Assembly: GCF_056746865.1 (NCBI RefSeq)
Contig: NZ_CM163382.1
DNA length: 64,000 nucleotides
Strand: one strand, 5' to 3'
Numbering within the stretch: position 1 is the first letter of the stretch; each line of letters opens with the position of its first letter. The notes beneath the pieces were generated by a model. That model saw only the letters and a list, made by a program, of their open reading frames with translations, made no database searches and had not been told where the DNA came from. Both the position numbers and the translations under genes were made by a program. Of the stretch, positions 17,027-18,586 are shown one piece after another.

Positions 17027-18586
17027 TTATGGGAGATAATAGGTCGATGCCCCGGGGCCAACGGGTAAGTTCAGTACAAAGACCCATATAACAAAGAATA
17101 CAGACCACCCGACGAGGAAAACTATGGAGTATGGAAGCATCATTGATATCAAAGTCCCAACACCGGCATCCTTTTTGTATTTAAGTACAATAGCCATAAC
17201 AAGCCCAAAATAACTCATCATTGGAGTAATAATGTTTGTTACTGAATCTCCAATTCTATAAGCAGCCTGTATTACTTCAGGGGCATATCCTGCCATCATT
17301 AACATAGGAACAAAAATTGGTGCTGTTACTGCCCATTGAGCAGATGCGGACCCAATCATTAAATTAATGACAGCACAAATCAATATAAATCCAATAAATA
17401 TTACGGAATCTGGCAAATCAAGACTATTCAGAAAACTCCCGCCTTTAACCGCAATAACCTGACCAATATTTGTCCAGCTAAACAAAGCTACAAACTGAGA
17501 GGCAAAAAATATAATGACCAGATAAAGTCCTAATGTACTCATTGAATGAGTCATGGCATCAACAATATCTTTGCTATTTTTTATTGTTCCCGCTGTATAT
17601 CCATATACTACACCAGCTAATGAAAAGAATATGAAAATGAAAGCCACTATTGATTTAAGAAATGGAGAATTGCTGATTAATCCTGTTTGTTGATTACGTA
17701 AGATTCCATCTTCAGGAATAACCAGAATGGCAACAATAACAGATAGTAGAAGTACAGATAAAAAGGACAGCATTAACGCTTTTTTCTCAACTGCTGTAAC
17801 ATCAGATGAATTACGAATTGACTGTTCATCCTGATTGAACCCTCCACCCTTGTATTTCCCTAACTGTGGTTCAACTATTTTTTCTGTTATCAGGTACCCC
17901 ATGAGTGTTATAAAAAATGTACTGACAAACATAAAATACCAGTTGGATTCAGCCCCTACAATATAATCAGATGATACAATTTGCGCTGCTTGCTGGGTGA
18001 TTCCTGACAAGAGCGGATCGATTGTACCTAATACTAAATTTGCTGAATAGCCACCCGAGACTCCCGCAAAAGCAGCAGCAAGCCCGGCCAAGGGATGTCT
18101 TCCCAGAGAATGAAAAAGTATTGCCGAAAGTGGTATTAAAACGACATAGCCAAGTTCTGAAGCCATGTTGGACATGATACCGGCAAAGACAACAGCTATA
18201 GTTGTTACTTTTGCAGGGGCTTTTGTCACAATAAGACGAAGGGTTGCTGAAATTAACCCGGACCGTTCTGCAATACCAACACCAAGAAGAGAAACCAGAA
18301 CAGTGCCCAGTGGTGCAAATCCCGTAAAATTAGTAACCAGATTCGAAAGAATTTTACGAACTCCATCTGCATCCAGTAAACTTACAATATAAATAATACC
18401 ATCATCATTCCGGCCTTTAGCTCCAGGTGGTCTTGGGTCTGGGGCGCTAATATTAAAATATTGTCCAATCATCGAAACTACAATTAAGGAAATTGTTAAT
18501 ATTATGAACAGGATGACGGGATGAGGAAGTGCATTGCCAAGCCATTCTACTGTTCTCAGGAAACGTCTTTCTCTTTTTGTTATCAT
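17027..18586 (-). CDS. AbgT-family transporter (p-aminobenzoyl-glutamate/MtrF-type)
   Basis: 519-aa polytopic membrane protein with AbgT-family character; strong RBS GGAGGAA before the ATG. Confidence 0.7.
   Translation of the reverse strand: MITKRERRFLRTVEWLGNALPHPVILFIILTISLIVVSMIGQYFNISAPDPRPPGAKGRNDDGIIYIVSLLDADGVRKILSNLVTNFTGFAPLGTVLVSLLGVGIAERSGLISATLRLIVTKAPAKVTTIAVVFAGIMSNMASELGYVVLIPLSAILFHSLGRHPLAGLAAAFAGVSGGYSANLVLGTIDPLLSGITQQAAQIVSSDYIVGAESNWYFMFVSTFFITLMGYLITEKIVEPQLGKYKGGGFNQDEQSIRNSSDVTAVEKKALMLSFLSVLLLSVIVAILVIPEDGILRNQQTGLISNSPFLKSIVAFIFIFFSLAGVVYGYTAGTIKNSKDIVDAMTHSMSTLGLYLVIIFFASQFVALFSWTNIGQVIAVKGGSFLNSLDLPDSVIFIGFILICAVINLMIGSASAQWAVTAPIFVPMLMMAGYAPEVIQAAYRIGDSVTNIITPMMSYFGLVMAIVLKYKKDAGVGTLISMMLPYSIVFLVGWSVFFVIWVFVLNLPVGPGASTYYLP

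Follow-up and report, generated by a model that had tools for sequence, protein, structure and literature searches.

An mtrF-like AbgT-family transporter gene beside a SPATE-type protease gene in a chromosomal island of Escherichia coli

The transporter gene and its neighbours

The window analysed here is a 64,000-nucleotide stretch of contig NZ_CM163382.1 (NCBI RefSeq assembly GCF_056746865.1). An mtrF-like gene of the AbgT family lies at 17027..18586 on the minus strand and is intact. It was characterized by its translation, Pfam and NCBIfam profiles, a PDB search, pairwise identities and a tree. The open reading frame starts with ATG and encodes 519 amino acids, uninterrupted up to the stop codon. 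Pfam profile PF03806 (ABG_transport) matches the protein with an E-value of 1.3e-210 and 700 bits against a cutoff of 27, far beyond chance, and profile positions 1–502 of 502 align with residues 8–517. This full-length match places the protein in the AbgT family (Pfam PF03806; TCDB 2.A.68). The NCBIfam model TIGR00819, 'ydaH / AbgT family antimetabolite efflux transporter', is passed narrowly, at 756.6 bits versus a cutoff of 753.55. The equivalog model for E. coli AbgT, NF008459, scores below its cutoff, 385.5 versus 864 bits. In the PDB search, MtrF of Neisseria gonorrhoeae (4R1I) scores 793 bits and YdaH of Alcanivorax borkumensis (4R0C) 417 bits. In RefSeq the gene already bears the annotation 'AbgT family (antimetabolite efflux) transporter', and its identical counterparts in PKF4 and PKF11 have been given the name 'AbgT family antimetabolite efflux transporter' by PGAP. 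Our literature search found no paper on this E. coli mtrF-like gene.

A strong, consensus ribosome-binding site (AAGGAGG) is located 6 nt before the ATG. The region further upstream (18587..18968, minus strand) is AT-rich and is presumed to be the native promoter region; sampled in 150-bp steps, the ~370 bp upstream of the gene have a GC content of 20–31%. A promoter scan of this region gave counts at chance level, with none on the minus strand directly upstream and no convincing sigma-70 promoter. A search of the leader for a riboswitch or other RNA element in Rfam (E ≤ 1) returned one chance-level snoRNA match only. A search for transposon-like boundaries found no meaningful repeats, direct or inverted, on either side of the gene. 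On the downstream side, a 10-bp stem-loop lacking a U tract begins 20 nt after the stop codon (16985..17007, minus strand). The minus-strand fold of 16960–17040 has a minimum free energy of -13 kcal/mol and a z-score of -2.4, and the stem-loop may act either as a weak terminator or as an RNA-stabilizing hairpin. A terminator scan of the minus strand between the transporter gene and the next gene found no canonical terminator. Because no strong terminator separates the two genes, they may be co-transcribed, and the absence of a U tract from the hairpin would make read-through possible.

This next gene (12840..16715, minus strand) encodes a SPATE-type serine protease autotransporter of the S6 family with 1291 amino acids. 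It lies 311 bp downstream of the transporter gene on the same strand, and with the full-length PF03806 match this bears out the preliminary description, which had seen an AbgT-family transporter adjoining a protease autotransporter. Pfam and NCBIfam identify a Peptidase_S6 domain (E 6e-92), a PIC/Hap-type beta-solenoid and an autotransporter beta-barrel. The first 2.2 kb of the gene are 88.8% identical in DNA to tsh/hbp; the protein matches none of the named SPATEs that could be verified and is a Tsh/Hbp-related S6 peptidase. The information in PMC6592367 does not identify it as Sha, TagB or TagC. The gene is itself mosaic: its 3' part (12786–14842) shares 96% identity with S6 genes carried by plasmids and by the chromosome of a platypus isolate, its 5' part (15169–16745) is 88% identical to those same genes, and 14843–15168 is unaligned.

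The boundary between the two genes was defined by blastn comparison with other S6 loci. Homology to two of these (L092 and L093) ends at position 16745, 30 bp before the S6 start codon, and beyond it lies the AT-rich spacer between the two genes (16746..17026, minus strand). In L092 and L093, the S6 gene is preceded, at a distance of 38 bp, by a fimbrial gene or a small hypothetical ORF. Since homology to the other S6 loci stops at 16745, the upstream region of the S6 gene has been replaced here. S6 relatives with 92–93% identity occur without the transporter gene on plasmids and on another chromosome. The evidence points to the transporter–protease pairing as a junction rather than a conserved unit: the transporter segment is fused upstream of a SPATE-type protease gene that has lost its own upstream region to replacement.

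On the other side of the transporter gene, an IS3-family transposase remnant (18969..19388; 89–90% matches to transposases of the IS3 family) joins the transporter–S6 segment to a block of YebF, ROK, GDPD, ABC and sodC genes. The immediate neighbours of the transporter gene are thus the S6 peptidase gene and the IS3 remnant, followed by a YebF-family pseudogene and a ROK regulator gene. The pseudogene (19636..19990, minus strand) contains an internal TAG stop, as seen in its frame translation and in the RefSeq annotation of the identical AR_0085 region, and strain E7-1N7 has an intact yebF that matches it at 81% in DNA. In that strain, a decayed, fragmented and diverged transporter allele (83–86% DNA identity) lies beside the intact yebF, suggesting an older association with yebF that has since been rearranged. 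A YebF-family gene recurs beside MtrF-like genes in two diverged E. coli lineages (window 19636–19990; L003 11086–11439). The block at 20085–26739 contains a ROK-family regulator, a glycerophosphodiester phosphodiesterase, a four-gene ABC transporter and a sodC-like Cu/Zn superoxide dismutase. Strain GF43 has this block in common with the window only from 19389 rightwards and carries sitABCD in place of the transporter gene; because the block also stands beside sitABCD there, it constitutes an island module of its own, for virulence or fitness. Within 20 kb on either side of the transporter gene in the identical AR_0085 locus, we found no abgA or abgB, no RND, MFP or OMF genes and no mtrR-like regulator.

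The island and the sul2 module

Of 5426 complete E. coli genomes, 28 carry the transporter–S6 segment from position 12269 rightwards at 99.8–100% identity. Carriage is therefore ~0.5% and mostly poultry-associated: chickens or chicken meat are the source of at least 17 of the 28 genomes, humans of 3 and black kites of 2. The island is chromosomal in all 28 genomes, and the transporter gene is found on none of the 72,556 plasmids in PLSDB. At least 1000 contigs encode the exact protein. Of the 5426 complete genomes, 5401 have the native abgT, and the island gene is therefore an extra paralogue.

The island is a large IS-scarred mosaic with CP4-57-like genes at one end (YfjI, a GTPase, DUF932 and CbtA/YeeU). 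In strain PK8276 (L094, NZ_CP080146.1 3268000–3316000) it adjoins ulaE/ulaF, and the CbtA/YeeU/DUF4942 end stands directly beside ulaE. This arrangement suggests insertion within the ula operon region and not at a tRNA gene; a search of the 64-kb window for tRNA genes found none.

The gene sul2 (9793..10608, minus strand) is located ~6.4 kb from the transporter gene, inside a separate resistance module at 1945..10914 (ISVsa3-floR-tet(A)-tetR-strB-strA-sul2) that was delimited by plasmid matches and the annotation of pfosA3. In full, the module consists of a truncated ISVsa3 (ISCR2), a DUF3363 gene, floR, a lysR fragment, tet(A), tetR, strB, strA and sul2. More than 5000 plasmids carry modules that match it at 99.9% identity, and here this plasmid-type module sits in a chromosomal-island context. 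The junction DNA at 10800–12401 has a 98% match to other E. coli island or transposase sequence. In the top-matching genomes, homology to the window begins at 12269 or 12527 and the resistance module does not lie beside the transporter gene; in AR_0085, IS66 elements and PTS/lsr genes take its place. Because homology elsewhere starts only at these positions, the co-location of sul2 and the transporter gene is a feature of this window alone. Neither a recurrent linkage to sul2 or the module nor a plasmid location of the transporter gene was found among the 28 genomes and in PLSDB. The preliminary description had linked the transporter to sul2 on shared mobile DNA, and the comparison does not support that link: all 28 copies are chromosomal, PLSDB has none, and the module is missing beside the top matches. 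From the sequences compared, the nearness of sul2 looks accidental and would reflect a later, separate insertion into an IS-rich island edge, without functional meaning. In a host that already has sul2, any efflux contribution of the transporter would be masked.

Phylogeny, conserved residues and origin

The closest relative in our alignment is a second E. coli allele, P0002, with 79.5% identity. The nearest proteins outside E. coli come from Providencia spp. and the unassigned P0003 (75–76%). Proteus and Xenorhabdus follow with 72–73%, Avibacterium, Gallibacterium and Spirabiliibacterium with 71%, and N. gonorrhoeae MtrF with 70% over 518 aligned residues and a single one-residue gap. YdaH is 43% identical and E. 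coli K-12 AbgT 37% (38% by BLASTP). A neighbour-joining tree was computed from 34 sequences and 520 columns with Kimura distances and 200 bootstraps. The transporter and P0002 pair with 100% bootstrap support, P0003 joins the pair at 79.5%, and the three fall inside a Morganellaceae group at 75.5%. A wider clade that includes Morganellaceae, Pasteurellaceae and Neisseria MtrF holds the transporter with 95–100% support, and YdaH and AbgT lie outside it. By this placement the protein is MtrF-type and not AbgT. A phylogeny against AbgT, MtrF and YdaH had been proposed in the preliminary description, and it gives a clear answer in favour of the MtrF clade (95–100% bootstrap). Clear orthology to the chromosomal abgT, which had been named there, together with a lack of effect on sulfonamide susceptibility, as the outcome that would tell against a drug-related role, is contradicted by the 37% identity, the NF008459 score and the MtrF-clade placement. 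Identification as the E. coli abgT orthologue is likewise ruled out by the 37–38% identity, the failure of NF008459 and the lack of linkage to abgA/abgB. Judged from sequence, the gene is a real, intact and horizontally acquired member of the MtrF clade of the AbgT family.

Several residues of MtrF (D193, S417, W420, P438, R446, D449 and P457) are reportedly important for function, as described by Su et al. in 2015. Positions D180, W400, P418, R426 and D429 of YdaH, reportedly the sites mutated in that protein, fall in columns that match these MtrF sites. The MtrF residue numbering is cross-checked in this way, because the same alignment columns give the expected YdaH mutant positions. The corresponding residues of the transporter are D190, S415, W418, P436, R444, D447 and P455, and all seven sites are invariant in 34 of 34 aligned sequences, AbgT included. 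Residues 407–471 of the transporter equal the MtrF stretch save for one M/L position, and this stretch holds residues that are said to be functional. Such invariance, which extends to the reported importer AbgT, speaks for a transporter that works and not for a particular transport direction or substrate. E147 and D449 of MtrF have been put forward as proton-coupling residues (PMC4621753). Both are kept in the transporter, as E144 and D447. Glutamate occupies the position of MtrF E147 in 32 of the 34 sequences and is confined to those that are MtrF-like; AbgT and YdaH have aspartate there.

The dN/dS ratio between the transporter gene and the P0002 allele is 0.078, with dS near saturation. A value of 0.08 against the nearest allele indicates strong, long-term constraint, which would mostly predate arrival in the island. 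The gene has a GC content of 39% and a GC3 of 29%, compared with GC3 values of 51% for the S6 gene, 67–73% for the ROK and GDPD genes and 54% for K-12 abgT. The transporter gene looks foreign by composition and under strong purifying selection. The GC3 of 29%, the dN/dS of 0.08, the strong ribosome-binding site and the absence of abgAB or RND genes nearby suggest that this stand-alone gene is of foreign origin, is kept by selection and derives from a low-GC enterobacterial lineage so far unsampled.

The Morganellaceae (Providencia, Proteus, Xenorhabdus) and P0003 homologues, at 72–76% identity, are likewise stand-alone genes without abgAB. They differ in being core chromosomal genes, whereas the transporter gene here is island cargo, and they have no neighbours in common with it. 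At 75% identity, none of them is close enough to have been the direct donor. On the P0003 contig, a PaeA-like core gene is only ~75–77% identical to that of any named Enterobacterales, which points to an unsampled lineage as the donor. The tree and the GC content suggest, as the probable donor, a low-GC relative of the Morganellaceae within the Enterobacterales.

Proposed function and alternatives

MtrF (4R1I) is the closest characterized relative, in the same well-supported clade, with 70% identity and with E147 and D449 kept in the transporter. The contexts of the two genes differ, since mtrF adjoins mtrR-mtrCDE and the transporter gene stands beside a SPATE gene in an E. coli island; GC3 differs as well, at 53% for mtrF versus 29%. 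According to PMC4621753, MtrF in E. coli gives resistance to several sulfonamides and lowers sulfamethazine accumulation in a manner dependent on the proton-motive force. The same paper describes the MtrF fold as common to YdaH and VcINDY, and YdaH as a sodium-regulated exporter of sulfonamides and PABA (PMC4621753). YdaH (A. borkumensis, 4R0C) has the family and fold of the transporter, but it is only 43% identical, lies outside the MtrF clade and has aspartate at the position of MtrF E147.

Because the transporter falls in the MtrF clade and fails the AbgT equivalog model, a capacity to export sulfonamides or PABA can fairly be inferred, and the MtrF-type assignment makes a role in antimetabolite export plausible. 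The most likely function, by analogy with what is reported for MtrF, is proton-driven export of PABA or sulfonamide-like anions. We consider it probable that the gene is an acquired, stand-alone MtrF-clade paralogue beside the native abgT and that its product exports PABA-like anions with the proton-motive force. By homology to MtrF, the protein would be a dimer in the inner membrane, each protomer built from nine transmembrane helices plus a pair of helical hairpins, and the proton-motive force would drive the export of p-aminobenzoate-like aromatic anions, sulfonamides included. When expressed, it may confer low-level tolerance to sulfonamides or antimetabolites.

A second reading, raised as hitch-hiking cargo in the preliminary description, is possible though not probable: the transporter may be biochemically competent and still be phenotypically silent cargo that entered the island along with adjacent DNA, is poorly expressed through xenogeneic silencing of AT-rich DNA and has no measurable effect on resistance or fitness. 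Gene and upstream region are very AT-rich, with no promoter signal above chance, and silencing of the H-NS type may apply to such a leader. The island has a mosaic make-up, with IS remnants and pseudogenes, the diverged allele has decayed into fragments in E7-1N7, and the related island of GF43 has no transporter gene. Against silence, the reading frame is intact and 99.8–100% conserved in 28 of 28 complete genomes, the transporter is found on at least 1000 contigs, and a strong ribosome-binding site precedes the gene. The dN/dS of 0.08 also speaks for long-term constraint, albeit mostly from before arrival in the island.

Import is an unlikely function. The E. coli AbgT protein (b1336) is the p-aminobenzoyl-glutamate:H+ symporter of the abgABT operon, in which abgA and abgB are the hydrolase genes. 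A transporter of this kind would take up p-aminobenzoyl-glutamate, a folate catabolite or a dipeptide-like nutrient for folate salvage. The two proteins have the same Pfam family, fold, length class and family-invariant residues, and many homologues are annotated 'aminobenzoyl-glutamate transporter'. However, they are only 37–38% identical and the AbgT equivalog model fails. The abgA/abgB/abgR context of K-12 is absent, with no abgA/abgB adjoining the gene either here or in Providencia, Xenorhabdus and Avibacterium, and abgT occurs in 5401 of the 5426 genomes versus 28 for the island gene. The closest characterized relative, MtrF, is moreover described as an exporter (PMC4621753).

An accessory role, in which the transporter boosts bile or detergent resistance through the tripartite pump AcrAB-TolC, is quite improbable. 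Placement in the MtrF clade brings it to mind, as MtrF is reportedly needed for high-level MtrCDE-dependent resistance to hydrophobic agents (attributed to Veal and Shafer, 2003). The 20 kb on either side of the transporter gene contain neither an RND pump nor an mtrR-like regulator, and the homologues in Providencia, Avibacterium and Xenorhabdus are stand-alone as well.

Least probable is a functional operon in which the transporter serves secretion, regulation or immunity of the SPATE protease: the two genes lie on one strand with a 311-bp gap and no canonical terminator, the transporter segment replaces the native S6 upstream region and the pair is constant in 28 genomes, but the transporter is missing beside S6 relatives at 92–93% identity, no S6 gene adjoins the MtrF homologues found elsewhere, GC3 values of 29% versus 51% indicate separate origins of the two genes, and autotransporters need no dedicated inner-membrane transporter.

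Returning to export of PABA-like anions, a wider proposal can be framed, which we regard as doubtful. The gene could be an unrecognized and uncatalogued factor that confers low-level tolerance to sulfonamides or antimetabolites, or one that governs PABA homeostasis; it would spread chromosomally and would have become enriched in poultry-associated E. coli via decades of sulfonamide use. It might also drive transcription of the SPATE gene and so link drug exposure to protease expression. If the transporter does export sulfonamides, ~0.5% of complete E. coli genomes carry an uncatalogued efflux-type tolerance gene on a virulence-type island, with a bearing on resistance surveillance in sul-negative isolates and on the co-location of drug-tolerance and virulence genes. 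If it is inactive, it simply adds to the foreign cargo of a mosaic island. In either case, its pairing with sul2 should not be taken as a functional association.

The surroundings of MtrF-like genes in other genomes are diverse. A tblastn search with the S6, YebF, ROK, GDPD and ABC proteins against 80 MtrF-like loci found no common context, and the Pfam contexts in Providencia, Avibacterium, Xenorhabdus and the P0003 contig all differ, save for one trio found in two of them. In Avibacterium and on the P0003 contig (L084 11771–14696; L090 8739–11446), a trio of genes for predicted membrane proteins (DUF969, DUF979 and DUF2891) adjoins the MtrF-like gene together with one unknown, and this association is possibly conserved. 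In Providencia stuartii (L089 10111–11793), a CdiI-type immunity gene and a gene for an IpgD-family effector, an inositol phosphate phosphatase, are found ~1.5 kb from the MtrF-like gene, a proximity that is probably coincidental.
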